Shown: piece after piece, positions 1 to 32,357 of the stretch
Layout: each line of letters starts with the position of its first letter
How positions within the stretch are numbered: the first letter of the stretch is position 1
Virus record (IMG/VR): IMGVR_UViG_2675903665_000002
Source of the DNA: a virus
Taxonomy: Duplodnaviria > Heunggongvirae > Uroviricota > Caudoviricetes
DNA: 32,357 nucleotides
Reading direction: 5' to 3' (one strand)
Notes under the pieces: generated by a model
Told to the model about the DNA's origin: nothing
The model's database searches: none
What the model saw: only the letters and a program-made list of their open reading frames with translations
Translations under genes and position numbers: made by a program

Positions 1-409
1 CTTCCTCTTCCTCTTCCTCTGGTAACTCCTTTTGTAACGCTGTTGGCGTTACTTTTTGCGTTACTCGTTTTCGATGCTCTGCCACTCTTCTATTCGTAAG
101 TGCACGTTTTTTCGATGATTCTCCATTGTGTCGCTCAAAGTTTGGAAGAATTAGTTTGCCGTCATGATAAGCAAGCCATCCGACGCTAATGAGGGCGTCA
201 GCAAATCCTGTAATAAAAGCGAGTCTATCAAGTACTCCTTTTGTAACGCTGCCAGCGTTACCGTCTATTGTTTGCTGGTCAGCCCATGCCCATATACGAA
301 CCAGCTTTCCAAGAACAGCATCTGGATCAATACCCAGAATTTCTGCTATCTGAAAAATTTCAGGTTTATCAGGAGTGATAACTTCAACCTTAATCCAGCT
401 GCTTGCCAT
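1..409 (-). CDS. Replication initiation protein, O-like, N-terminal part; gene wraps the window junction and continues at 31910..32357
   Basis: ATG at 409-407 preceded by GAGGGG SD. Hand translation MASSWIKVEVITPDKPEIFQIAEILGIDPDAVLG... runs into a poly-Glu linker at positions 2-19. Reading frame is continuous with ORF 31910..32302 through the duplicated 26 nt. Sits immediately upstream of the lambda P-like gene. Confidence 0.7.
   Translation of the reverse strand, partial: MASSWIKVEVITPDKPEIFQIAEILGIDPDAVLGKLVRIWAWADQQTIDGNAGSVTKGVLDRLAFITGFADALISVGWLAYHDGKLILPNFERHNGESSKKRALTNRRVAEHRKRVTQKVTPTALQKELPEEEEEE
27..66. repeat. Candidate origin iteron copy 1 (TCCTTTTGTAACGCTGttgGCGTTAC) plus tandem GCGTTACT x2
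   Basis: A 26-mer at 27-52 recurs at 237-262 with 3 mismatches. It contains inverted arms GTAACGC/GCGTTAC. The two copies lie in different protein contexts inside the O-like gene, so conservation is at DNA level. Confidence 0.45.
237..263. repeat. Candidate origin iteron copy 2 (perfect 19-bp palindrome GTAACGCTGcCAGCGTTAC)
   Basis: Second copy of the 26-mer, about 210 bp from copy 1 and inside the O-like coding region, analogous to lambda ori lying within gene O. Confidence 0.45.
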
Positions 410-602
410 AGGTTTCCCCTCTTGCACTCTTTAGTGCACAAGCAAATTCATTACGATGGCGGTTGGCGCTATTCATTGCACATTCAACACATGTTCCGTT
501 CAGAACATACCTTTCAGAGAGATGGCCGTGACGGCACCGCTTTCCTGTGAAATAGCGATTTAACCCGGCTTTTGCGGCCTCCATTCTGGTTACTATCTTC
601 AA
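390..602 (-). CDS. Small Cys/His-rich (zinc-finger-like) protein between the Cro-like gene and the replication genes
   Basis: 70-aa ORF with CRHGH...CVEC motif. TTG start at 602 with AGGGG SD about 8 nt upstream (alternative ATG at 584). Its end overlaps the O-like start. Confidence 0.45.
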   Translation of the reverse strand: MKIVTRMEAAKAGLNRYFTGKRCRHGHLSERYVLNGTCVECAMNSANRHRNEFACALKSARGETYGKQLD

Positions 603-750
603 TTTTTCCGCCCCTTTTTGTTATTGATATTGGCTATTTTGCACAATTGGAAAATTTGATCAACCAGATTTGGTTTTTTATTACCTTTGAGGTACGAATA
701 GATATGAAAAGACCGCCGGGTGGCGGTCTACAGAGGGGTGTGGCTGGATA

Positions 751-981
751 TCATGAGTAGAAGAAGTATGCCAGTTCTGCTTTTGAGCGCAGCCATTGTC
801 TTGTTTTACAGGCTTTAAAAAGCCCATTCATCAATACTTTACCTGGCATTTTGCGCTTACCTGTTAAGTGAGTCTGGATATAGTGACTCGTCGTTCCGGC
901 TTCCTGTGCGAAGGCTTCACGCTCATCCGGAGTAAGTGCAAGCCAGTGCTTTTTGAAATCGAAATGTCCGTTATCGCTCAT
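751..981 (-). CDS. Cro-like small HTH DNA-binding regulator
   Basis: 76 aa with a helix-turn-helix-like segment (EAFAQEAGTTSHYIQTHLTGKR). Divergent from the repressor-like gene across an operator cluster. Confidence 0.6.
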   Translation of the reverse strand: MSDNGHFDFKKHWLALTPDEREAFAQEAGTTSHYIQTHLTGKRKMPGKVLMNGLFKACKTRQWLRSKAELAYFFYS

Positions 982-1017
982 AGCTATTGCCTGATATTTA
1001 TTTCAGATAATAAATAT

Positions 1018-1080
1018 TCACCCATAAGGTAACAAAAATCAAGGATAGTTACCCATGAGGTGCATTTACCTGTTGGGTAA
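1018..1080. promoter_or_regulatory. Divergent immunity-region operator cluster: three sites matching TTACC-N5-GGTAA
   Basis: TCACCcataaGGTAA at 1018-1032 (9/10), TTACCcatgaGGTGC at 1049-1063 (8/10), TTACCtgttgGGTAA at 1066-1080 (10/10). Lies between divergent genes 751..981 (-) and 1136..1720 (+). Confidence 0.7.
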
Positions 1081-1135
1081 TATTGCTTTAAATTGAATCA
1101 TCTACTGATTCATATATGAGGCGATTTTCCAGAAA

Positions 1136-1720
1136 ATGAAAAGTATCCAGGACGTCCGCAGGCAAAATCTCAACGACTTGATCGACCGTGAATTCAATGG
1201 TGTTCAGACGCGGATGGCAGAAAAACTTGGAACTCAGGCAAATCTGGTAAACCGCTGGGCTCTTGGCAAGAAGGTTATCGGCGACCAGGTTGCGCGAAAA
1301 ATTGAAGCTGCCGCCAATAAACCACGTAACTGGCTTGATATCGATCGCTCGCTTTCTCAGGAAGGTTTTCAGCCTGTCGGCCCAAGCGACATTGGTCAGC
1401 TGGCGGCTCACAACCTGGAACGCTGGATGAGCGAAAGCCGCGACCTTTCAACTCAGGGAAAACTTCACCGCGCATCCGGCGTCGCCCAGGTGACAATCAG
1501 CCGCCTGTTAAACAATGAGGTCAGTGTTTCCATTTCCACCCTGGAGAATGTTGCATCAGCATTCGGGCGTCACGGCTATGAATTACTGATTCACCCGCAC
1601 GACCCTGCGACCATCAACTATGACCGCTCGCGCTACGCATTGTTACCCGAAACCGAGAAAGCAAAGATCGAAAGTTACATTGAATTTGTCATCAACCAGA
1701 ACGAAAAAAACAAACAATAA
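1136..1720 (+). CDS. Phage repressor-like protein with two tandem XRE-type HTH domains; no LexA-like S24 peptidase domain recognised
   Basis: 194 aa. HTH-like segments near residues 20-60 and 110-150. No obvious SD upstream of the ATG, so possibly leaderless like lambda cI. Followed by an intrinsic terminator. Confidence 0.65.
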   Translation: MKSIQDVRRQNLNDLIDREFNGVQTRMAEKLGTQANLVNRWALGKKVIGDQVARKIEAAANKPRNWLDIDRSLSQEGFQPVGPSDIGQLAAHNLERWMSESRDLSTQGKLHRASGVAQVTISRLLNNEVSVSISTLENVASAFGRHGYELLIHPHDPATINYDRSRYALLPETEKAKIESYIEFVINQNEKNKQ

Positions 1721-1740
1721 AATCATATTTTTCAGTAAGT

Positions 1741-1768
1741 AAGCCGCCTTCTGGCGGCTTTTTTATTG
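1741..1768 (+). terminator. Rho-independent terminator after the repressor-like gene
   Basis: Hairpin AAGCCGCC-ttct-GGCGGCTT followed by a T-run. Confidence 0.75.
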
Positions 1769-1777
1769 CCTATACTA

Positions 1778-1854
1778 TTACCTAATGGGTAATTTTTTTA
1801 ACTCATATCTATTGACATCAAACCAAATACGCATAATTATTACCTCAACGGTAA
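1778..1854 (+). promoter_or_regulatory. Early-left promoter (TTGACA 1812-1817, -10-like TAATTA/AATTAT about 1834-1840) flanked by two perfect operators
   Basis: TTACCtaatgGGTAA at 1778-1792 and TTACCtcaacGGTAA at 1840-1854; the second overlaps the -10/+1 region. Confidence 0.65.
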
Positions 1855-1873
1855 CAGACCGAGGTAACAAGTT

Positions 1874-2026
1874 ATGCAGTGGAAAATCATCAACGGTTGG
1901 TACTGCGTTACTGCATGCGGATTCATGAGCTGGAAGTTCCGCACCTTACAGGAAGGCATTAAGTGGGCTTTCGTCAGCAAAGAAGCTCGCGATGTGGCCA
2001 ACGATAACGAGATATGGGAGGGCTGA
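1874..2026 (+). CDS. Small hypothetical protein (50 aa), first ORF of the early-left operon
   Basis: ATG at 1874 with GAGGT SD 8 nt upstream. Below the size cutoff of the ORF track; found by hand translation. Confidence 0.3.
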   Translation: MQWKIINGWYCVTACGFMSWKFRTLQEGIKWAFVSKEARDVANDNEIWEG

Positions 2027-2028
2027 TA

Positions 2029-2328
2029 ATGAACGTTAATCAGCAGAAAAATCTTCAAAAAATCATGCTGGCATTCGACAAGGACTACCGCCTGTCAGAA
2101 CAGCTATATGACCGACAAGTTGAACTGATCGAGAGCATCCGGCTTCATCAACTGGCCTCAACTTTCGACGCTGTAACAGGTAAAGGCGTTCGCCAGGAAG
2201 TACTGGAGGCCGCTAAAGACAGTCCAGAGTTCGAAGAACTGATGGATTCCTACCGGCGAGAGGCAATGGCAATTATCGCCCGCTGGGATCTGGCGGATCA
2301 GCTTGATGGGCAGAGGGACGCGGCATGA
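2029..2328 (+). CDS. Hypothetical early protein
   Basis: ORF 2014..2328; likely start MNVNQQK at 2029 after GGGAGG. Its stop overlaps the next start (ATGA). Confidence 0.5.
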   Translation: MNVNQQKNLQKIMLAFDKDYRLSEQLYDRQVELIESIRLHQLASTFDAVTGKGVRQEVLEAAKDSPEFEELMDSYRREAMAIIARWDLADQLDGQRDAA

Positions 2329-3146
2329 AACCGGGAATTTATTTCGACATCAGCAACGAAGACTACCACGCCGGTGACGGCGTGAGTAAGTCGCAACTGG
2401 ACATGGTTGCCAAGAATCCGGCGCTTCTTAAATGGGTTCAGGCAGCACCAGAAGACGAAGAGAAAAAGTCTGCACTGGATATGGGAACCGCATTGCACTG
2501 TCTGCTTCTGGAGCCTGGAGAGTTCGACAAACGCTTCATTGTTTCACCGAAATTCGATCGTCGGACGAAACAAGGTAAAGCTGACGAAGAGGCATTTCTT
2601 CGTGATATTGCGGATATGGGGATTTCGGTACTTGATGCAGAGCAGTGGCGGAAACTGGAGCTGATGCGTGATAGCGCAATGGCTCACCCGGCGGCACGCT
2701 GGATGTTGGAAGCTCCTGGTTACTGCGAAGCATCAATGTACTGGAACGATGAAGAGACTGGTGAGTTGTGCCGCATTCGTCCAGACAAATGGCTGAACGA
2801 GCACAACGTGATCGTCGACGTGAAAAAGGTTGCAGATATGGACCGTTTTGCACGCCACATCGAGGAATTCCGCTACCACGTGCAGGACGCAATGTACCGC
2901 GAAGGCGCAATGAGGGTTACTGGTCAGCCGCATGGTTTTTTCTTTCTTGCCGTGAGCGAAAGCATTGATTGTGGTCGGTATCCGGTACGCGTGTTCGAGC
3001 TGGATGAGCCGGATGTCGATGCCGGGCACGCTCTGTTCCGCCGGGATCTGAATACCTATCACGAATGCCGCATCAACGATGAATGGGGCGGAGTGGAAAT
3101 TATTAAACGCCCTGACTGGGCACGTAAACAGGATATGTACGTATGA
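2325..3146 (+). CDS. RecE-like 5'-3' exonuclease, PD-(D/E)XK fold
   Basis: 273 aa with a D...(E/D)xK-like motif (RPDK...VIVDVKK). Translationally coupled to the downstream annealing protein, the typical exo/annealase pair. Confidence 0.6.
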   Translation: MKPGIYFDISNEDYHAGDGVSKSQLDMVAKNPALLKWVQAAPEDEEKKSALDMGTALHCLLLEPGEFDKRFIVSPKFDRRTKQGKADEEAFLRDIADMGISVLDAEQWRKLELMRDSAMAHPAARWMLEAPGYCEASMYWNDEETGELCRIRPDKWLNEHNVIVDVKKVADMDRFARHIEEFRYHVQDAMYREGAMRVTGQPHGFFFLAVSESIDCGRYPVRVFELDEPDVDAGHALFRRDLNTYHECRINDEWGGVEIIKRPDWARKQDMYV

Positions 3147-4024
3147 GCAATGATATCGCAATCACATCACAACCAGGCGCAACTGTAGGCACTGCTGCGG
3201 CAATCTTCAGCCCCGAGGGCATGAATCAACTGGTGCGTTTCGCGGAGTTGATGTCACAAAGCAAAGCGACTGTACCGAAACATCTTGAAGGCAAACCTGC
3301 CGATTGTCTGGCGGTGACCATGCAGGCGGCACAGTGGGGAATGAACCCTTTCGCCGTGGCGCAGAAAACGCATGTGGTAAACGGAACGTTAGGCTACGAA
3401 GCACAGTTGGTAAACGCGGTCGTATCCTCTTCCAGCCTGCTGGCGACACGCCTGAATTATCGCTGGAGCGGTGACTGGTCGAATGTTAACGGCAAAACAG
3501 ATAAATCACCGAATCTGACGGTAACTGTGTCAGCAGTTCTTAAAGGAGAAGCAGAACCCCGTGAGCTTACCATCAGTATGGCGCAAGCCGGAGTGCGTAA
3601 CTCTCCATTGTGGGAACAGGATCCGCGCCAGCAGCTTGCCTATCTTTGCACGAAACGATGGGCTCGCCTGCACGCTCCTGATGTGCTTCTCGGTGTTTAC
3701 ACCCCTGACGAATTACAGGAAACGGCACCGCGCGTTGAGCGAGACATTACTCCGCAAACAACTACTGCTGCGGGAATGAACAGTCTGATCAACGCTAAAC
3801 CAGTGAAAAAGCCTGATGAGCAAACTCGTAAAGCGGATAGCCGTGATCCAGAAGAAATGCTGATGGCCTTTACCAGCGCAGCGATGAATTACAGCACTGT
3901 CTCCGAACTGGATAAGGCTTACAAATACATTGCACAAAAACTTTCAGATGATGACGAACTGCTGGCAAAAGCCACCGACGTTTACAGCGTTCGTCGGGAA
4001 GAATTAAACGAAACATCTATGTAA
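3143..4024 (+). CDS. Single-strand annealing protein, RecT/Red-beta (Bet) family
   Basis: 293 aa. Segment ...WARLHAPDVLLGVYTPDE...ERDITP... resembles the lambda Bet region as remembered. Positioned next to the exonuclease. Confidence 0.75.
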   Translation: MSNDIAITSQPGATVGTAAAIFSPEGMNQLVRFAELMSQSKATVPKHLEGKPADCLAVTMQAAQWGMNPFAVAQKTHVVNGTLGYEAQLVNAVVSSSSLLATRLNYRWSGDWSNVNGKTDKSPNLTVTVSAVLKGEAEPRELTISMAQAGVRNSPLWEQDPRQQLAYLCTKRWARLHAPDVLLGVYTPDELQETAPRVERDITPQTTTAAGMNSLINAKPVKKPDEQTRKADSRDPEEMLMAFTSAAMNYSTVSELDKAYKYIAQKLSDDDELLAKATDVYSVRREELNETSM

Positions 4025-4073
4025 CCACCACCGCGGCGCCACGTGCGCCGCACTGCAACCAAGAGAGGTATTT

Positions 4074-4322
4074 ATGAAAGGTGCATTAGGTAAGAAGGAA
4101 CTCCTGGCGGTGGTGCCACTGTCATGGAGCACTATCGACCGTATGGAGCGCGCAGGTGAATTTCCTAAACGCTGGTATATCACTGACAAACGCTGCGCAT
4201 GGAACCGTGACGAAGTTGAGCGTTGGCTTGATGAACGTCAGGCAGCAAGCCCGGCAGAGTTCCAGGGTAAAAAACCTCCTGTTCAGCAACGTGTATATCG
4301 TCCCGTGAGCAACGCTGCATGA
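4074..4322 (+). CDS. AlpA-family phage transcriptional regulator / excisionase-like HTH protein
   Basis: 82 aa; motif LSWSTIDRMERAGEFPKRWYITDKRCAWNRDEVERWL is typical of AlpA/Xis-like proteins. Confidence 0.7.
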   Translation: MKGALGKKELLAVVPLSWSTIDRMERAGEFPKRWYITDKRCAWNRDEVERWLDERQAASPAEFQGKKPPVQQRVYRPVSNAA

Positions 4323-4431
4323 GTGCGCTGCTAAGGCACTGGATCAAATGGTCAGGATGGTACTTATTCCTGGCCTCTGTTTCAGCATGGCTTTATCTGC
4401 TGGCATTAATTTTCAGAGAGGGTTGGATTAA

Positions 4432-4731
4432 GTGAGAAAGTTAAGCCGACTTGAAAAATATCACATGAATAAGGTTTCAATGCGCAGTCCGTCAAAGATT
4501 GTCGCCGTTACTCCTGCGGCGATAGAGATCGAAAAACGCGCGATTGAAAGAGAGAAAAAAGGGCAGTTCCGCATTGCCGCTCACCTTTGGCTTCAGTGTA
4601 TGGATGTTGCTTCTGGTGATGTTGAGCGTGCAAGGATCGCGGTTCGCAGGGACCAATGTATCACAAAAGGTAACGGCCTTCGCCGTGGAGACTATAGCGG
4701 TATAGGATGTTGCGGGGTGGTTTATGACTAA
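4432..4731 (+). CDS. Hypothetical protein; overlaps the methyltransferase start
   Basis: 99-aa ORF with an 8-nt overlap with the downstream gene. Start uncertain (alternative ATG at 4462). Confidence 0.4.
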   Translation: MRKLSRLEKYHMNKVSMRSPSKIVAVTPAAIEIEKRAIEREKKGQFRIAAHLWLQCMDVASGDVERARIAVRRDQCITKGNGLRRGDYSGIGCCGVVYD

Positions 4732-5374
4732 GAAATACACACTAATCTATGCAGATCCACCCTGGGTATACCGGGACAAAGCCGCAGATGGTAATCGCGG
4801 TGCCAGTTTTAAATATCCGGTTATGAGTGTGATGGATATCTGCCGCCTTCCTGTGTGGGATTTGGCCGATGAAAACTGTCTGTTGGCCATGTGGTGGGTG
4901 CCAACACAACCACTCGAAGCGCTAAAAGTTGTTGAAGCCTGGGGATTCCGTCTGATGACCATGAAGGGCTTCACGTGGATAAAATGTGGTAGTCGACAAC
5001 CAGATAAACTGGTTATGGGTATGGGGCACATGACTCGCGCCAATAGTGAAGATTGCCTGTTTGCGGTAAAGGGAAAACTACCTACGCGCATTAATGCAGG
5101 GATCGTTCAGTCATTTACCGCACCGCGGCTTGAGCATTCAAGAAAACCAGATATCGTTCGTGAAAAACTTGTGCAATTGTTAGGCGATGTTTCTCGCATT
5201 GAACTGTTCGCCAGACAGACGTCTCATGGCTTCGATGTTTGGGGTAATCAGTGCGAAGACCCGGCAGTGCAACTACACCCTGGATACGCGTTGGATATTG
5301 CCGGATTAACAAATGCATTCAGCAATGCTCCGCTGTCACCAACAGACAACCAGGGGCGGGAGCGTGCAGCATGA
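4724..5374 (+). CDS. DNA N6-adenine methyltransferase, MT-A70-like
   Basis: 216 aa with the DPPW catalytic motif (IYADPPWVY) near the N-terminus. Confidence 0.8.
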   Translation: MTKKYTLIYADPPWVYRDKAADGNRGASFKYPVMSVMDICRLPVWDLADENCLLAMWWVPTQPLEALKVVEAWGFRLMTMKGFTWIKCGSRQPDKLVMGMGHMTRANSEDCLFAVKGKLPTRINAGIVQSFTAPRLEHSRKPDIVREKLVQLLGDVSRIELFARQTSHGFDVWGNQCEDPAVQLHPGYALDIAGLTNAFSNAPLSPTDNQGRERAA

Positions 5375-5619
5375 AGCAGATTATGGTTGCACACAACGGC
5401 GTCAGGTTTGAAGTCGTCATGGTTTTGACTAAGTACCGCAATGATGAGGTATTGCAGAGAAAAGAAACTGTAACTTACCGTTATAAACACCGAAGTTCAG
5501 CTGTTAGAAGATTACGGAAGATTACGGAAGAGCTAAAAAATGATCCTCATCGTGTTATTGAGGTAAAAGGCAACCCATATAAAATCACAACTTCAGTGGA
5601 GCTAAGACATATGCAATAA
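5371..5619 (+). CDS. Small hypothetical protein translationally coupled to the methyltransferase
   Basis: ATG overlaps the methyltransferase stop (ATGA). 82 aa. Contains a perfect tandem 10-nt duplication (ATTACGGAAG x2 at 5511-5530). Confidence 0.45.
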   Translation: MKQIMVAHNGVRFEVVMVLTKYRNDEVLQRKETVTYRYKHRSSAVRRLRKITEELKNDPHRVIEVKGNPYKITTSVELRHMQ

Positions 5620-5943
5620 AATCACGCCTGACGAATCGCGATTATCTCGCTATTGGTATTGCAGAGATTGCTGGACTCAGTGGCGCATGATTTGACAATG
5701 CCGCCAGAGCTATCGCATACTGACCGCACTAGAACTTCAAAGCGGTCACCCGCACCCGATAGCTTTGCGGCTTTTTTATGCCTGCAATTTGGCATAGTCA
5801 CATCCGTACAAAGGTCGGGTGGAGAGGCGTAATACAATACCCAAAAGGGGAATATGCCCGGAGCGTCTTTGAAGGCTCTAGTTGACACCCGATCACCAGC
5901 TACTAACTGGTGATTGCTAACTAAAACTTCAAAGGAGGTCATC

Positions 5944-6594
5944 ATGACCAGTCAACTCATCCCCGTATTCAACGGCACTATATCCAACGAAACCGCTCTT
6001 CTCGTTAATGCCCGTGATTTACACACTTTCCTCGATGTGGGTAAGCGATTTGCTTCGTGGATTGTCGAACGAATTGCTGAATATGGTTTCGTTGAAAATC
6101 AAGACTTTATGATTATTTCCCAAGTTCGGGAAAAAATAGGCAGAGGCCGTCCTGCAAAAGACTACCACCTAACCCTCGATACAGCCAAAGAGCTGGCGAT
6201 GGTCGAGCGTAACGAAAAAGGTCGTCAGGTACGACGCTACTTCATTGAATGCGAGAAACGTTTAAGACAACAAGAAACAAAAGTGGAGAAGGTCTTGTCA
6301 GGCTTCATGCCCGCCATTATGGAGGCGATCAAGCTGGAAGACAAAAAAGAATACAGCGCCCCACTGAAGCCCGGCTACCGCAGCCTGATTCACTCGCCGT
6401 CTGGTGTTCTTGGCCTGACGGAGAACTCACTGCTGATGAATCTGCTGAACCAGTTACAGGAAGACGGGCACGACGTATCGGGCGCGGCGGCGGAGCTGAC
6501 CACCATGTTCTGCTACATCGTTGGTGTGAGCAAATGCCTGCGTGATATCCAGACGCACGCGGAGTACATCAACGACAAGGCAGGGTTCTTCTGA
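5944..6594 (+). CDS. Phage antirepressor (Bro-N/AntA-like N-terminal domain)
   Basis: Perfect AGGAGG SD 7 nt upstream of ATG 5944. N-terminal region resembles the AntA/Bro-N antirepressor fold (...ARDLHTFLDVGKRFASWIVERIAEYGFVENQDF...). Confidence 0.7.
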   Translation: MTSQLIPVFNGTISNETALLVNARDLHTFLDVGKRFASWIVERIAEYGFVENQDFMIISQVREKIGRGRPAKDYHLTLDTAKELAMVERNEKGRQVRRYFIECEKRLRQQETKVEKVLSGFMPAIMEAIKLEDKKEYSAPLKPGYRSLIHSPSGVLGLTENSLLMNLLNQLQEDGHDVSGAAAELTTMFCYIVGVSKCLRDIQTHAEYINDKAGFF

Positions 6595-6640
6595 CAGAAC
6601 GGCGGCACAGGGATGTGCCTTTAAATAATTCTGTACAGAT

Positions 6641-6682
6641 TGCAGACTGTGGGTGAATAGCGTACTATTACCTTAAAGGTAA
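6641..6682 (+). promoter_or_regulatory. Promoter-like element with perfect operator upstream of the AT-rich two-gene operon
   Basis: TTGCAG at 6641-6646, 16-nt spacer, TACTAT at 6663-6668, then TTACCttaaaGGTAA at 6668-6682. Confidence 0.55.
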
Positions 6683-6724
6683 ACCTGTTTTTATTTTATA
6701 CCTGTAACTTACCGGAGATTAAAG

Positions 6725-7051
6725 ATGACAAAACTTGGATTCGTGATGAGAGGTCCGGTAAGAAGCGGAACTCATGCAAAGCGTAGCAAGAGTCGTATTT
6801 TTACTGGTAAGGTTGTAGCACGTAAATCAGCTATTGGCTCGTTCAATAGTGAAAATGCGGCATTGCGCCATATTTTTATCAGCACAAAGCCAAGAGCATC
6901 CGCTGATGTGCATACAATGTCTATTCCTATCACAAAGAATATAAAGCGGATAAAAAAGCTCTCATCTGCAGAATCAAAAGAGATATCTTTCCGCCAGCTT
7001 AACTCATTAGAAACGCATATGAAGGAAGAGGAATTCGATGTTTTTGAGTGA
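6725..7051 (+). CDS. Hypothetical small basic protein (108 aa), first gene of an AT-rich accessory pair
   Basis: GGAG SD 8 nt upstream of the ATG. AT-rich relative to flanking phage genes, with several AGA and ATA codons. Stop overlaps the start of the next gene. Confidence 0.6.
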   Translation: MTKLGFVMRGPVRSGTHAKRSKSRIFTGKVVARKSAIGSFNSENAALRHIFISTKPRASADVHTMSIPITKNIKRIKKLSSAESKEISFRQLNSLETHMKEEEFDVFE

Positions 7052-7550
7052 GTATAGCGGGAAGGTTATACCTACTGGTGAGTTTAAAACTGATGACTTT
7101 CTGATTTCGCTAAAAGATGCTTTTAAACAACACTGGCGTCATGGTCATCATCCTGATCTGGGAAAAGATACTCTTTTTGAAAGACCAGAGGAAGTATTAG
7201 GCTTCCATCTCAGAAAGGTTCATGTCAATATTGGTGAATATGCATCATATTCATACTCATGTACTGAACAGTGTTGGGATGAGTGGTCATATGGATTGAT
7301 TGATGAACAAGGAAATTACAGGCCAAAACCAACCAGTAACGCATATCTCATATATGCAGTCAATGAAATAAGAGATGCAGCCTTACTAGCTTATTGGGAC
7401 CCGCCCGCACACACCAAAGCTAACGCAAAAGTTTGGATGGATTCCGTATTGAATTTCACAAAATTATTTCATGAACGAACGAATACAGCTCCACTTAGTA
7501 GAAATGTTTATCCGTGGGATTATTCGTACAAATCCAAAAAGCCTGCATAG
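7038..7550 (+). CDS. Hypothetical protein (170 aa), second gene of the AT-rich accessory pair
   Basis: ATG 7038 with GAGG SD; overlaps the upstream gene by 14 nt. No family recognised. Confidence 0.6.
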   Translation: MFLSEYSGKVIPTGEFKTDDFLISLKDAFKQHWRHGHHPDLGKDTLFERPEEVLGFHLRKVHVNIGEYASYSYSCTEQCWDEWSYGLIDEQGNYRPKPTSNAYLIYAVNEIRDAALLAYWDPPAHTKANAKVWMDSVLNFTKLFHERTNTAPLSRNVYPWDYSYKSKKPA

Positions 7551-7631
7551 TAGTTTTTTATGGACGAAACAAAAGTCAGTGCTACACTCATTGACGCCAC
7601 ATTGAGGTGGTTTATAGATGGAAATTTCACA

Positions 7632-7793
7632 ATGAAAAAAGCATTTGCTGCACTGTTCGTTTTGTTGTCTCTGGTAGCTTCAACTCAGGCCTTTGCCGGT
7701 CGTTGTCAGCACGACAGCGACACTGCTGCTGACGGCTCCCGCTGCGGTGGGCGTTCTGCGGATTCCCGCCCGGGTGGCGGTGGCATTCGTTAA
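7632..7793 (+). CDS. Small secreted Gly-rich protein (53 aa) with N-terminal signal peptide
   Basis: MKKAFAALFVLLSLVASTQAFA signal-like N-terminus. ORF-track start at 7560 is probably too far upstream. Weak RBS. Confidence 0.4.
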   Translation: MKKAFAALFVLLSLVASTQAFAGRCQHDSDTAADGSRCGGRSADSRPGGGGIR

Positions 7794-7815
7794 AAACAAG
7801 GCCGCGAAAGCGGCC
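7791..7815 (-). terminator. Intrinsic terminator closing the long - strand structural operon
   Basis: GGCCGC-GAAA-GCGGCC hairpin; on the - strand it is followed by TTGTTTTTA. Confidence 0.65.
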
Positions 7816-7816
7816 T

Positions 7817-7832
7817 GTGACATGTCACACTA
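7817..7832. repeat. 16-mer GTGACATGTCACACTA, copy 1 (palindromic core TGTGACATGTCACA)
   Basis: Identical 16-mer recurs at 27852-27867. Both copies sit at a gene stop next to a - strand terminator, at the two boundaries of the structural operon. Confidence 0.6.
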
Positions 7833-20187: not shown

Positions 20188-20238
20188 CTTCTTTCTCCAT
20201 TAGTGGGTCTGTTACGACCCACAGGTTAATAACAGGCG

Positions 20239-24199: not shown

Positions 24200-24236
24200 T
24201 TGACATTTAACGCGTGAATTATTACCTTTCGGGTAA
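24200..24236 (+). promoter_or_regulatory. Promoter (TTGACA at 24200-24205) with perfect operator for the tRNA transcription unit
   Basis: TTACCtttcgGGTAA at 24222-24236 positioned where a -10 element would be expected. Confidence 0.55.
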
Positions 24237-24558
24237 CCAAAGAGCTCATTCCGGTTACTAACCTGACTGGCTTGTCGTTAAATTAAACAGGTGGAGTGAG
24301 CTTTTATTTTGAGCAGTACGGCGTATGGCACATGCGCCGATAGCGGTCTGGATACGTTTAAGGGGCACCCTCCCTTGCTCGGGCAAACGAACCAGGTAGC
24401 CGGAATGTGCAAGTCGAGCGGTTTTATTCCGCGCACGGGGATTCACCATCCCGGCGATTCGGTGTGACGCCTCGGAAGAGACGAGGGTACAACGATGAGA
24501 GCATTTATGGAGCCGCGACAAAGTGTGGCGCCTTAACAGGCTAAGTGCTCTCAGCGTT

Positions 24559-24635
24559 GTGGCATTAGCTCAGTTGGACAGAGCAACCGCCTTCTAAGCG
24601 GTTGGTCGCAGGTTCGAATCCTGCATGCCACGCCA
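24559..24635 (+). tRNA. argU: tRNA-Arg (anticodon UCU), argU-like
   Basis: 77 nt. 7-bp acceptor stem GTGGCAT/ATGCCAC, D-arm GCTCAGTTGGACAGAGC, anticodon arm ACCGC-CTTCTAA-GCGGT (anticodon TCT), T-arm GCAGG-TTCGAAT-CCTGC, discriminator G plus CCA. Near-identical in arrangement to E. coli argU. Confidence 0.95.
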
Positions 24636-24721: not shown

Positions 24722-24798
24722 CAGCAGGACGCCATTGCGATGACTTCATGCTGTAAACCCGTACAGCCACGGAAGGCATAACTCATTGCTTCCAGTTC

Positions 24799-24838: not shown

Positions 24839-24857
24839 TTACCTTAAAGGTATAATC
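24839..24857 (+). promoter_or_regulatory. Near-consensus operator (TTACCttaaaGGTAT, 9/10) fused to TATAAT, directly upstream of the membrane-protein gene
   Basis: Same TTAAA spacer as the 6668 site. TATAAT at 24851-24856. Confidence 0.5.
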
Positions 24858-25676
24858 ATGAAAAACTTCAAGGTAATTAGCATGTTTGAATCGTTTAAAG
24901 AGCTGTTTTTATCTACTGCCAATACTGCCGTGAATCGAGCCAAAAACCCTGTGCTTGGTGCTTTTGTTATGTCCTGGTGCGCCTTCAACTGGAAATCAAT
25001 TCTTTATCTATTTTTTAGCAAATCAAACATAATAGATAAAATTTCATATATCTCAGATAACAGCACATGGAAAACTGTTATGTTTTATCCATGCTTATCT
25101 GTAATTGCTATCTGCTGCCTATTACCATGGGTAAACAATATCATTAACGTATGGCAAGCAAAGCCTCTTGATAATAATGACTCAATCGAAAATCACCTGA
25201 AGGCAAGAAAAATCCAGCGTGAAACCAGACTGCAGAGGTTATTGGCTAAAAAAGATGTTACATACGACAAAGTTAAGACTGGCGCGGAAAAAGACATCCA
25301 AGAGATGAAAGAAGAGATTATTCGATCAAAGAATAGTATGGGGGAATTGACTGCTGAGTTGAAAGCTAAAGATGACGAATTGAGATCCGCCAGTGCTCAG
25401 TTAGCAGCTCTAAATCATTCATTAAAAGAGATATCGGAAACTCTTGGAAGAATGAATGAGGCATATAAGACCCTCCAAAATGATTTCGACGAATACAAAC
25501 TCAAATACCCTGAAAAATCTCAAATAAAAAGTCTTGCACTTGGCAACGGCCAAACAATTAGCAACTTTTTGGAGCAACACAACTTATCCGGATTAAAATC
25601 TGGTAAGCCAGACGTTTTTAATAACTTTGGTGTTCTATCTGGATTATCAGGTTTCGAGGATAAAAATAAAGACTAA
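24858..25676 (+). CDS. Accessory membrane protein: two predicted TM helices followed by a long coiled-coil; AT-rich
   Basis: Hydrophobic segments VLGAFVMSWCAFNWKSILYLFF and VMFYPCLSVIAICCLLPWV, then a charged heptad-like region. Opposite strand to the structural genes. Start may be ATG 24882 if TATAAT is the -10. Confidence 0.6.
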   Translation: MKNFKVISMFESFKELFLSTANTAVNRAKNPVLGAFVMSWCAFNWKSILYLFFSKSNIIDKISYISDNSTWKTVMFYPCLSVIAICCLLPWVNNIINVWQAKPLDNNDSIENHLKARKIQRETRLQRLLAKKDVTYDKVKTGAEKDIQEMKEEIIRSKNSMGELTAELKAKDDELRSASAQLAALNHSLKEISETLGRMNEAYKTLQNDFDEYKLKYPEKSQIKSLALGNGQTISNFLEQHNLSGLKSGKPDVFNNFGVLSGLSGFEDKNKD

Positions 25677-27148: not shown

Positions 27149-27741
27149 TGATTACCATCCTGACGTTCTTTGAGTCGCTTCCTGGCTGCTGCTATGCGAT
27201 CAGCAATTGTCACATTCACATTAACATCCAGACGTTCTTTGAATGCGTTGACATCAACATGCTTACCAATCAGCTCAAGGTTCTTCACCTTGTCAGGCCA
27301 TTTAATTTTTTTGAGGATTGTCTCTATTGAATCCTCGTTCATGTTCATGATGGTCGATGACAGATCAAAGCCACTAAGCGTAGTGCGCCAGATTTTCGGC
27401 CACTCACGGATTGGTTTAAGGCTCCCATCGTCGTTGAGGATGTCGATCACGTCCATCTGGTCGATCTCCACCAGGCGCATGAGAACGTAATCAGCACTGA
27501 CACGCATTCGTTTGTTGCGCTCCTCCATCAACTCGGCAATCCGTTTCTGAATGCGTTCATCGCGCATCATGACACTGGCTTTAACTGCCGCTGTATTTGG
27601 GGAGAATCCTGCGTTAATCGCAGCCTGAGTCTGGTTTTCAGGCGTTTTGATGTATGACTGGCAATAAGCCTCCTGCATTGCTGTGAGCGGCTTAAATTGC
27701 GTTGATTTGCGTTTATAGGTTTTAGGTTCAGCAGGCATCAT
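27145..27741 (-). CDS. Terminase small subunit
   Basis: N-terminal LTAMQEAYCQSYIKTPENQTQAAINAGFSPNTAAVKA... resembles the Terminase_2-type small subunit. Start set at ATG 27741 (MMPAEP..., GGTGG SD) rather than the TTG at 27819. Confidence 0.75.
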   Translation of the reverse strand: MMPAEPKTYKRKSTQFKPLTAMQEAYCQSYIKTPENQTQAAINAGFSPNTAAVKASVMMRDERIQKRIAELMEERNKRMRVSADYVLMRLVEIDQMDVIDILNDDGSLKPIREWPKIWRTTLSGFDLSSTIMNMNEDSIETILKKIKWPDKVKNLELIGKHVDVNAFKERLDVNVNVTIADRIAAARKRLKERQDGNQ

Positions 27742-27758
27742 AACCACCGTGGTAATTG

Positions 27759-27781
27759 TTACCGTTGTGGTAATAATACCA
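27759..27781 (-). promoter_or_regulatory. Candidate late promoter: extended -10 (TGgTATTAT on the - strand) overlapped by a perfect operator
   Basis: TTACCgttgtGGTAA at 27759-27773. The - strand reads catgGTATTATTACC, so the operator covers the predicted start site 18 nt upstream of terS. Confidence 0.5.
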
Positions 27782-31047: not shown

Positions 31048-31124
31048 TTACCCCTGAGGTAATTAAAAACCACATAAGACACGAAATCAATAGATTTTAG
31101 AATATTTTATTACCTAACGGGTAA
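31048..31124. promoter_or_regulatory. Two perfect operators between the P-like gene and the downstream nuclease-like gene
   Basis: TTACCcctgaGGTAA at 31048-31062 and TTACCtaacgGGTAA at 31110-31124. Confidence 0.65.
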
Positions 31125-31938: not shown

Positions 31939-32357
31939 CCCACACCCCTTCTATCCAGTCAGTGTTATTCCAGTCAAGCTCATCGCTTTTCCCGGCATTT
32001 TTTGATTTTCCCCTGATATGATTTACGTGCCTGGCGAATTTTTGTTCCCACTGAACCTGCGTGAACACTTTGCCCTCAGCCATCCAGTAATCCCGGAATG
32101 CAGCAAGTTCAGCAGGTGTAAATTCCGGTTCCGGCAGGGCCGTTCCCCACAGCGCAGCACGCCGCCGAAAATCTGGCGACGGTAGCCAGCCATCTGTCAT
32201 CGGAAATTTCCCGATGGGTTCACTCAGGCCATCCAGAAATTCAGGTTCTGCCACCTGCAACGGCGTACTGTTCGCTTCACTGGTCGGAGCACCCTCGCGC
32301 ACGTGCGCTATGTGTGGGGTTTTATATATATCTTCCTCTTCCTCTTCCTCTGGTAAC
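31910..32357 (-). CDS. Replication initiation protein, O-like, C-terminal part; continues from 1..409 across the junction
   Basis: ORF 31910..32302 has no credible start of its own (GTG) and stays open upstream through the poly-Glu codons. Frame matches the 1..409 segment. Confidence 0.7.
   Translation of the reverse strand, partial: LPEEEEEEDIYKTPHIAHVREGAPTSEANSTPLQVAEPEFLDGLSEPIGKFPMTDGWLPSPDFRRRAALWGTALPEPEFTPAELAAFRDYWMAEGKVFTQVQWEQKFARHVNHIRGKSKNAGKSDELDWNNTDWIEGVWDEINSRTSQ

Follow-up and report, generated by a model that had tools for sequence, protein, structure and literature searches.

The 32,357-nucleotide viral contig analysed here (IMG/VR record IMGVR_UViG_2675903665_000002; hereafter the window, meaning the whole of this stretch) carries, to judge from its sequence, the lysogeny switch of an epsilon15/phiV10-type podovirus of the genus Uetakevirus. 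We consider it probable that this switch is built from a repressor (Rep) and an antirepressor (Ant) of the type known from Salmonella phage SPC32H, with the ant gene housed in a self-contained cassette that is gated by RNA. That a non-cleavable repressor is removed by an antirepressor is well supported and has already been published for this lineage, through the SPC32H structures and overexpression experiments in Escherichia phage vB_EcoP_ZX5 (ZX5). The new part is the region directly upstream of ant (5620–5943), which would act as a c4/CI/IsrK-like RNA switch that makes use of the fold of the small RNA (sRNA) family sRNA-Xcc1.

Rep is a 194 amino acid protein encoded on the plus strand at 1136–1720 and comprises an N-terminal helix-turn-helix (HTH) domain and a C-terminal HTH_3-like domain. 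The original prediction, made from the letters of the window, described a repressor with two HTH domains and no recognisable LexA/S24 domain, and it was right on both counts: Pfam matches HTH_3 at residues 106–147 (E 1.2e-9) and, weakly, a YdaS-type HTH at residues 21–61, and finds no Peptidase_S24 in Rep at E values up to 0.01. The hallmarks of the autocleaving LexA/lambda CI class (a C-terminal S24 peptidase with a Ser-Lys dyad and an Ala-Gly site) are not seen in Rep. A phmmer search against PDB instead aligns residues 1–190 with residues 2–197 of SPC32H Rep (5D50_A, E 4e-42), the C-terminal domain of which has also been solved alone (5D4Z). As the whole length of the protein aligns to the crystallised repressor there is no space for a hidden S24 fold, and the two domains of the solved homologue cover all 194 residues. 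If the roles that a 2016 PNAS study of SPC32H reportedly assigned to these domains hold (DNA binding for the N-terminal domain, oligomerisation and Ant contact for the C-terminal HTH-like domain), then the description 'two HTH domains' is true of the Rep sequence, not of its function. Rep is 41.8% identical to SPC32H Rep and 100% identical to both ZX5 ORF21 and phiV10 gp40. Overexpression of ZX5 ORF21 eliminates free phage and blocks lytic growth, with endolysin and holin transcripts reduced by more than 99.9% (PMC9782041).

The ant gene (5944–6594, plus strand) lies 4.2 kb downstream of rep and encodes a 216 amino acid protein. The open reading frame (ORF) listed for the gene begins at a TTG codon at 5914 but the true start is the ATG at 5944, which is preceded by AAAGGAGG, with a Shine–Dalgarno sequence (GGAGG, 5934–5938) and a 5-nt spacer; the distance of about 4 kb and the good Shine–Dalgarno match given in the original prediction are thus borne out, as is the gap of some 300 bp upstream (324 bp, 5620–5943). 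Of the 'Bro-N/AntA-type' label, the AntA half stands (PF08346, E 8.8e-28; residues 21–90, nt 6004–6213) and the Bro-N half does not. The protein belongs to the PHROG family of anti-repressor Ant proteins (phrog_377, E 3.7e-66). Its C-terminal domain (residues 135–211, nt 6346–6576; AntC below) matches residues 3–79 of 5D50_E, the 86 amino acid SPC32H Ant that was co-crystallised with Rep (E 5.4e-14), and when SPC32H Ant is used as the query the only match in the window is 6343–6567, inside the long ant gene. Ant ends in the same 80 residues as ZX5 ORF4, a Bro-N protein whose overexpression lowers prophage titre from 10^9 to 10^6 and lysogeny by around 1000-fold (PMC9782041). In the account given by papers that cite the SPC32H work, Rep binds DNA as a tetramer, tetrameric Ant takes two Rep dimers and so disrupts that tetramer, and Ant is produced after LexA self-cleavage and represses repressor function through protein–protein contact. 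By analogy, Rep and Ant of the window would be expected to bind one another. Homology between the window and the ant cassettes of Shiga toxin (Stx) phages is confined to 5686–6259, taking in the promoter, the RNAs and the AntA domain, and the C-terminal third of Ant is the Uetakevirus-specific, SPC32H-Ant-like part. It looks as though Ant joins a generic N-terminal domain to a C-terminal domain matched to the resident repressor.

The 324-bp gap upstream of ant contains two TTGACA hexamers, and the TTGACA promoter-like element of the original prediction survives in the first of them only. This hexamer (5692–5697), an 18-nt spacer and CATACT (5716–5721) together form a predicted promoter, P_ant (5692–5721, plus strand), that agrees with the consensus at 10 of 12 positions; the positions of its –35 and –10 elements are kept across leader subgroups and it is here, at 5686, that the homology to Stx-phage cassettes begins. 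The second TTGACA (5882–5887) falls within the closing-stem region of a structured RNA, and in other leader subgroups the hexamer is not kept whilst the pairing is. That RNA (5813–5902, plus strand) is a member of the sRNA-Xcc1 family (RF02221; scoring 62.9 bits where the gathering cut-off is 53, E 2.8e-9) and ends 42 nt before the ant ATG. Its last hairpin exposes an antisense loop, CTTTGAAG (5867–5874), which is the exact 8-nt complement of CTTCAAAG at 5927–5934, a target that overlaps the first G of the Shine–Dalgarno sequence (the two together spanning 5927–5938). A second copy of CTTCAAAG is found at 5735–5742, about 7 nt past the predicted transcript start, in the place of an a1/seqA/IsrK-like decoy. 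Between this copy and the structured RNA is the predicted terminator of a short 5′ RNA (5750–5779, plus strand), with a stem CCGCA...TGCGG followed by CTTTTTTAT. Since a single-sequence fold gives another pairing here, the terminator rests on comparison: the stem carries compensatory changes, the T run is conserved, and leaders of both the Xcc1 and the C4 type keep this terminator (the stem plus TTTTTTAT) together with the –35 and –10 hexamers of the promoter.

ACCA (5895–5898) follows immediately on the closing stem of the sRNA-Xcc1 element; its CC is the same in all 20 leaders compared, a sequence hint that the RNA may be an RNase P substrate like c4 or CI. The RNA is followed by a stem-loop (5890–5916, plus strand; –19.4 kcal/mol, z –3.7) whose core is a perfect palindrome, ATCACCAG-N7-CTGGTGAT (5892–5914), that is unique in the window. 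We considered whether this palindrome might be a protein operator lying over a second promoter and rejected the idea: the TTGACA there is unconserved, and because its paired positions covary the palindrome is better explained as an RNA hairpin (helix 6, in which three of the five pairs counted have changed on both sides). The 107 amino acid minus-strand ORF at 5622–5945, a counterpart of which is annotated as orf43 in Stx2-converting phage 86 (2667–3260, minus strand), is probably a false gene call, given that it overlaps the conserved promoter and RNA leader.

Comparison of related loci ties this RNA to antirepressor genes. Of 80 loci in IMG/VR that encode Ant homologues, 19 diverse ones were searched with Rfam, together with that of phage HEMP4. 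All 19 have either sRNA-Xcc1 (14 loci) or isrK plus C4 (five loci) directly upstream of ant, and HEMP4 has one of each, at its two long ant genes. The loop takes 16 different sequences in 25 distinct leaders, and in 22 of these leaders it finds a perfect complement of 7–9 nt ending 7–11 nt before the ATG, against the 4–5 nt that non-cognate pairs of loop and target mostly reach. The upstream copy of the target, around 190–217 nt further upstream, is present in 21 of the 25 leaders with their own loop, compared with 27 of 572 non-cognate pairings. In a MAFFT alignment of 20 leaders, seven of the eight pairs of the loop–target pseudoknot helix (helix 5) have changed on both sides, and the stems covary: 80% of cells are paired, as against 32–54% when the partners are slid. 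The loop of the window, CTTTGAAG, also occurs unchanged in other ant cassettes (loci L057 and L093). To look beyond Ant homologues, IMG/VR was scanned with the conserved core of the first Xcc1 hairpin, yielding 69 elements with a downstream ORF. In nearly all of these the start codon follows the core motif by about 95–137 nt, in 65 of them complementarity between loop and ribosome-binding site (RBS) is at least 6 nt, and 48 different loops are represented. Antirepressor-type N-terminal domains are seen in 61 of the 68 distinct proteins encoded downstream (P22_AR_N in 15, Bro-N in 13, KilA-N in 12, AntA in nine, Rha in eight and ORF6N in four). The searchable literature yielded a single passing mention of such a link, which puts sRNA-Xcc1 before the gene of an ORF6N protein of APSE phages.

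The original prediction had suggested looking for a LexA box or the phage operator in 5620–5943; neither is present. The operator motif, TTACC-N5-GGTAA, occurs 13 times in the window with no more than one mismatch when 0.41 sites are expected, and none of 100 shuffles of the window approached this number; the motif is also found in the OR and OL of SPC32H and upstream of SPC32H ant, and by this analogy its sites would be occupied by Rep. An OR-like cluster lies between rep and the cro-like gene (1018–1080), comprising TCACCCATAAGGTAA (1018–1032), TTACCCATGAGGTGC (1050–1064, weaker, with two mismatches) and TTACCTGTTGGGTAA (1066–1080), and in the OL/PL-like region (1778–1854, plus strand) operators at 1778–1792 and 1840–1854 flank a promoter (TTGACA-17-AATTAT, 1812–1840). 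From 5380 to 5960, an interval that includes 5620–5943, there is no Rep operator at one mismatch or fewer and no LexA core (CTGT-N8-ACAG) at that stringency, and a single LexA core with two mismatches is seen where 2.2 are expected by chance. Across the whole window the LexA core at one mismatch or fewer is found 11 times against 11.2 expected; exact cores at 20209 and 24751 were set aside as having GC-rich centres and lying far from ant. The second of these (24751–24766, CTGTAAACCCGTACAG), doubtful as a LexA box on account of its GC-rich centre, is accompanied 150 bp away by a one-mismatch site (24903–24918), the two flanking the Rep-operator promoter of a gene that starts near 24859–24883 (phrog_4780).

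In SPC32H, by contrast, ant is preceded by a LexA box (TACTGTATGTTTATACAGT) and a Rep operator, and an equivalent perfect LexA box stands before a separate 86 amino acid short ant in HEMP4 and ZX5. Sequence comparison identifies this separate gene as the SOS link in all three phages, and a search of the window with SPC32H Ant finds no counterpart. Since 5620–5943 contains neither a LexA box nor an operator, and the LexA-linked short ant is a distinct gene missing here, the ant gene of the window is unlikely to be an SOS trigger; it has no visible link either to LexA or to Rep. Antirepression in place of RecA-mediated cleavage, as originally proposed, is indeed what homology to SPC32H and ZX5 predicts, but the LexA or operator control of ant that the proposal implied for 5620–5943 did not materialise. 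HEMP4 has three genes with an SPC32H-Ant-like domain: an Xcc1-gated AntA–AntC gene after the methyltransferase gene, a LexA-controlled short ant and a Bro-N–AntC gene behind isrK plus C4. In ZX5, a Rep operator lies over the promoter of ORF4 (also Bro-N–AntC). Uetakevirus ant loci of the standard kind can be described as two-tiered, the first tier consisting of a LexA box, a Rep operator and the 86 amino acid ant and the second of a long antirepressor, Bro-N or AntA, that has the same C-terminal domain and is preceded in turn by a promoter with a Rep operator, an isrK-like RNA and a C4 RNA (HEMP4 33803–35085; ZX5 1078–2545; phiv142-3 2930–4161).

From these observations we propose the following model. 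Rep, having no autocleavage domain, would bind its 15-bp TTACC-N5-GGTAA palindromes as a tetramer, as its SPC32H homologue does, and would be inactivated only by a protein with an SPC32H-Ant-type domain, for which ant (5944–6594) is the window's only gene. The ant cassette would be self-contained, wired to neither LexA nor Rep. Its own sigma-70-type promoter (5692–5721) would start the ant transcript, and a short 5′ RNA with the decoy copy of the target inside it would stop at the terminator (about 5728–5779). Transcripts that read through would carry the sRNA-Xcc1-family RNA (5813–5902), one loop of which would pair with the 8 nt flanking the ant RBS and so block ant translation, either in cis or, following RNase-P-type processing, in trans. 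The 5′ decoy RNA would then titrate the Xcc1-type RNA and lift the block, in the manner of P1 c4, P4 seqA-CI-seqC and Gifsy-1 IsrK. What the sequences themselves show is the homologies, the excess of operators, the match to the RNA family, and the covariation of the loop with RBS target and decoy; Rep–Ant binding in this phage, the direction of the RNA control and its physiological signal are drawn by analogy and may differ here.

The closest relative of the switch with known structures is that of SPC32H (Kim & Ryu 2013, J Virol 87:11775; PDB 5D4Z and 5D50), a phage of the same genus with the same gene order around rep, a full-length homologous Rep without S24, the same operator motif and an Ant domain homologous to the co-crystallised chain. 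The differences concern ant above all: SPC32H Ant is a free 86 amino acid protein encoded beside the tailspike gene, whereas in the window the domain is fused to the C-terminal side of AntA and encoded at the end of the early-left operon, and where SPC32H ant has both a LexA box and a Rep operator the window ant promoter has neither, with an RNA switch instead. Identity between the two phages is about 40% for both Rep and the Ant domain. ZX5 is much closer in its proteins (Rep identical, and likewise the last 80 residues of ORF4) but ORF4 has Bro-N rather than AntA at its N-terminus, sits in a locus with a LexA box and a short ant, and is preceded by an isrK plus C4 leader whose promoter carries a Rep operator, where the window has an Xcc1-type leader. 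In the Stx phages (Phi24B Ant/AntB, Stx2-converting phage 86) the DNA equivalent to 5686–6259, covering promoter, RNA leader and AntA domain, is 87% identical, and ant is likewise placed far down the early-left operon, with int and a methyltransferase gene nearby; it is in the C-terminal domain of Ant that they differ. The C-terminus of Phi24B Ant was described by Fogg et al. as P22-Ant-like, which matches a lambdoid CI repressor rather than one of the SPC32H type. Of the Arc- or Mnt-type ribbon-helix-helix regulators expected beside ant in the immI arrangement of P22 itself (ant under Mnt/Arc control, with sar RNA) there is no sign: the sole flanking small ORF (5371–5619) has no Pfam match, and the palindrome at 5892–5914 behaves as an RNA hairpin.

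As for the RNA, the layout of promoter, target copy, terminator, structured RNA and RBS target is that of P1/P7 c4, P4 seqA-CI-seqC and Gifsy-1 IsrK-STnc1160-anrP. The window leader shares with the c4/CI/IsrK modules a target at the RBS of a gene controlling antirepressor synthesis, RCCA after an acceptor-like closing stem, and a specificity loop that covaries with its targets, and within the window's own Ant family this position may be filled either by C4 plus isrK or by Xcc1. P1 c4 has two variable loops (a2 and b2), whereas the window RNA has one only. It also differs from c4 and CI in belonging to RF02221, outside the C4 clan, and from the known c4/IsrK modules in that its target directly adjoins the RBS of ant, without a leader ORF such as icd or orf45. 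The names 'IsrK' and 'C4' are those that Rfam gives to the P4 seqA-CI-seqC and P1/P7 c4 layout (PMC3632133; PMC2864571). In Gifsy-1, short terminated IsrK acts in trans on the read-through isrK-orf45-anrP transcript and turns on translation of the AnrP antirepressor, inducing the prophage, and IsrK itself is elevated in stationary phase and low Mg2+ (PMC4825925). With no match to the Rfam C4 or isrK models, the window element would be an analogue or a very distant relative of the C4 clan, not a member of it.

Several observations weigh against the model. AntC is just 40% identical to SPC32H Ant, and Rep just 42% to SPC32H Rep. Searching 5600–6000 with Rfam at E values up to 1 returns sRNA-Xcc1 only; since the C4 and isrK models miss the window, the link to c4 is one of architecture and covariation, not of sequence homology. 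In the minimum-energy fold of the full leader the decoy (5735–5742) pairs with the loop region and the RBS is left free, so that the default state could be ON rather than OFF. Other papers treat sRNA-Xcc1 as a Xanthomonas or Xylella sRNA, acting in trans in Xanthomonas. Finally, the lysis, tailspike and integrase genes are missing from the contig, so it is doubtful what 'induction' of this particular molecule could amount to.

Other readings of the cassette have to be set against this. Ant might act as a feed-forward lock rather than a trigger, being made mainly by read-through from the Rep-controlled PL-like promoter (1812–1840), so that it appears after some derepression has occurred and renders the lytic decision irreversible, as proposed for Ant of the Stx phage Phi24B. 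The gene is co-oriented with the early-left operon, of which it is the last gene, no plus-strand terminator is predicted between 1841 and 5750, and it is from an Stx-phage cassette in the same operon position that the 87% identical leader and N-terminal half of Ant are known. Deletion of Phi24B ant, moreover, reduces late-promoter activity after norfloxacin to around 30–56% of wild type without abolishing it (PMC3064807). The cassette has its own conserved promoter, however, at which homology to other phages exactly begins, and read-through transcripts would also contain the inhibitory RNA and have to pass the terminator at 5750–5779. We regard a predominantly feed-forward role as a minority possibility, and one that is compatible with the RNA-gated switch rather than exclusive of it. 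Rather less probable, in our estimation, is that RNA-gated Ant serves mainly in superinfection or against the repressors of co-resident prophages, like P1 immI, P22 immI and the trans-acting antirepressors of Gifsy/Fels-2, with the RNA loop setting immunity specificity and SOS induction falling to the short, LexA-controlled ant that intact relatives have. Those relatives (SPC32H, HEMP4, ZX5 and phiv142-3, with its Orf7) do have a separate 86 amino acid ant behind a perfect LexA box, the loop specificities are many (16 among the 25 leaders, 48 in the IMG/VR scan), identical loops recur in other cassettes, and antirepressor cross-talk has been documented (PMC3121763). Yet the C-terminal domain of Ant fits the known partner of its cognate Rep and not a foreign one, and deletion of Phi24B ant is without effect on superinfection (PMC3064807).

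Two further explanations fare considerably worse. A classical SOS-coupled antirepressor of the 186 Tum, Gifsy or SPC32H type, held by LexA or Rep at 5620–5943 and firing on DNA damage, would fit both the mechanism that reviews give for the homologous SPC32H system and the LexA box that precedes the short ant of relatives, but with neither CTGT-N8-ACAG nor a Rep operator within one mismatch in 5380–5960, and with the second TTGACA and the palindrome belonging to covarying RNA helices, it is very improbable here. Scarcely any weight can be given to the idea that the RNA has nothing to do with ant, lies before it by coincidence and acts in trans on host genes: the Rfam family was indeed founded on a Xanthomonas sRNA to which action in trans has been ascribed, but the element stands at a set distance from the start codon, its loop covaries with the RBS through 48 distinct loops, and 61 of the 68 downstream genes are of antirepressor type.

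The rest of the window bears on how far the cassette's setting can be trusted. Positions 1–5380 are 96–98% identical to the early region of the Uetakeviruses phiV10, TL-2011b, ZX5 and HEMP4, and gene order in the early region is that of phiV10 and ZX5. Divergent from rep is a gene for a Cro-like small regulator (751–981, minus strand; phrog_35 transcriptional repressor, E 5.6e-13; the equivalent of phiV10 gp41), the first gene of a rightward-type (replication) operon. An intrinsic terminator with an 8-bp stem (six GC pairs) and a T run follows rep (1741–1760, plus strand), in the place where phiV10 is annotated with one. The early-left operon (1874–5374, plus strand), recognised by Pfam and by synteny with phiV10 and ZX5, is driven by the PL-like promoter and encodes small ORFs, a PD-(D/E)XK exonuclease, RecT, AlpA-like and PerC-like proteins and an MT-A70 methyltransferase. 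Directly upstream of the ant cassette is an ORF of 82 amino acids (5371–5619, plus strand; phrog_9805, E 6e-58) that lies outside the block common with Stx phages, which begins at 5686; it is also found in HEMP4-type phages and in the prophage of strain DETEC-S566, a strain in which this ant has a convergent integrase gene and guaA behind it.

Downstream of ant the picture changes abruptly. At 6619/6620, comparison with IMG/VR and E. coli sequences places a breakpoint between a context in which ant follows the methyltransferase gene and one in which the ant locus lies beside structural genes. HEMP4 and six IMG/VR contigs share the methyltransferase-to-ant context and diverge from the window at 6617–6619; in four other contigs the sequence from 5940 to 7830 is contiguous, yet the leader is C4-type. 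Among the IMG/VR contigs compared the two contexts are joined in the window only, and none of 5,426 complete E. coli genomes spans the junction, although 875 match a junction-spanning query, the best matches ending at 6619. On this evidence the window looks like the product of a crossover between two ant paralogues, which measure about 680 bp. The cause may be a real 7.5-kb deletion or, more probably, an assembly shortcut across the duplicated ant, because the 26-bp end overlap seen here (positions 1–26 recur at 32332–32357, making this a circular contig of 32,331 bp) is what a k=27 graph typically leaves. Missing from the window, by comparison with SPC32H, HEMP4 and ZX5, are the tailspike gene, the lysis cassette, the integrase gene and the LexA-controlled short ant. 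The arrangement of methyltransferase gene, 82 amino acid ORF, leader and ant itself can be taken as genuine on these comparisons.

To judge by the position of the remaining operators, Rep appears to control many promoters beyond OR and OL. A perfect operator, TTACCTTAAAGGTAA (6668–6682), lies upstream of a gene pair at 6725–7550, and others are located after the terminator of the cro-like gene (681–695), around tRNA-Arg (24222–24236 and 24839–24853), in tandem directly before the small terminase gene (27741–27773, starting at 27741 and 27759), and flanking the promoter before a DUF1064 gene (within 31048–31124, starting at 31048 and 31110). The sites at the terminase and DUF1064 promoters suggest direct repression of late and replication promoters by Rep. 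The pair behind operator 6668 consists of a 108 amino acid ORF (6725–7051, plus strand; phrog_5933) overlapping by 14 nt a 170 amino acid ORF (7038–7550, plus strand) that has a sub-threshold match to YafO toxin (E 7e-4) and a relative in TL-2011b annotated as a YafO family toxin; the two may form a toxin–antitoxin-like pair. Between the Rep-operator promoter (TTGACA 24200, operator 24222) and tRNA-Arg(TCT) (24559–24635) is a noncoding stretch of about 320 nt (24240–24560, plus strand) that folds better than shuffled sequences (z –2.8) and matches no Rfam family at E values up to 1. It may be a tRNA precursor leader or a novel RNA.

The logic of repressor and antirepressor in the window is nothing new, being the SPC32H and ZX5 system in another genome. 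What the analysis adds is that the same Rep-binding domain can occur in up to three differently wired genes per phage lineage (LexA-gated, Rep-plus-C4-gated and Xcc1-gated), and that the orphan Rfam family sRNA-Xcc1, recurring before antirepressor-type genes across IMG/VR phage contigs, gains a concrete and testable function. We take this family to have been described so far as a trans-acting sRNA of Xanthomonas and integrons. The chances seem to us about even that it instead represents a third structural class of c4/CI phage immunity RNAs, a programmable antisense leader with one variable loop and release by a 5′ decoy, the loop pairing with the RBS of antirepressor-type genes (AntA, Bro-N, KilA-N, Rha, P22_AR_N and ORF6N). 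If so, the dozens of loop specificities would amount to RNA-level immunity groups across unrelated prophages, such as Stx phages and Uetakeviruses, and would offer an SOS-independent path to induction and to cross-talk between prophages. Should the RNA gate answer signals other than DNA damage, as Gifsy-1 IsrK does, it would provide a route to SOS-independent induction in phages that include the Stx-converting phages, which bear the same RNA-gated cassette.

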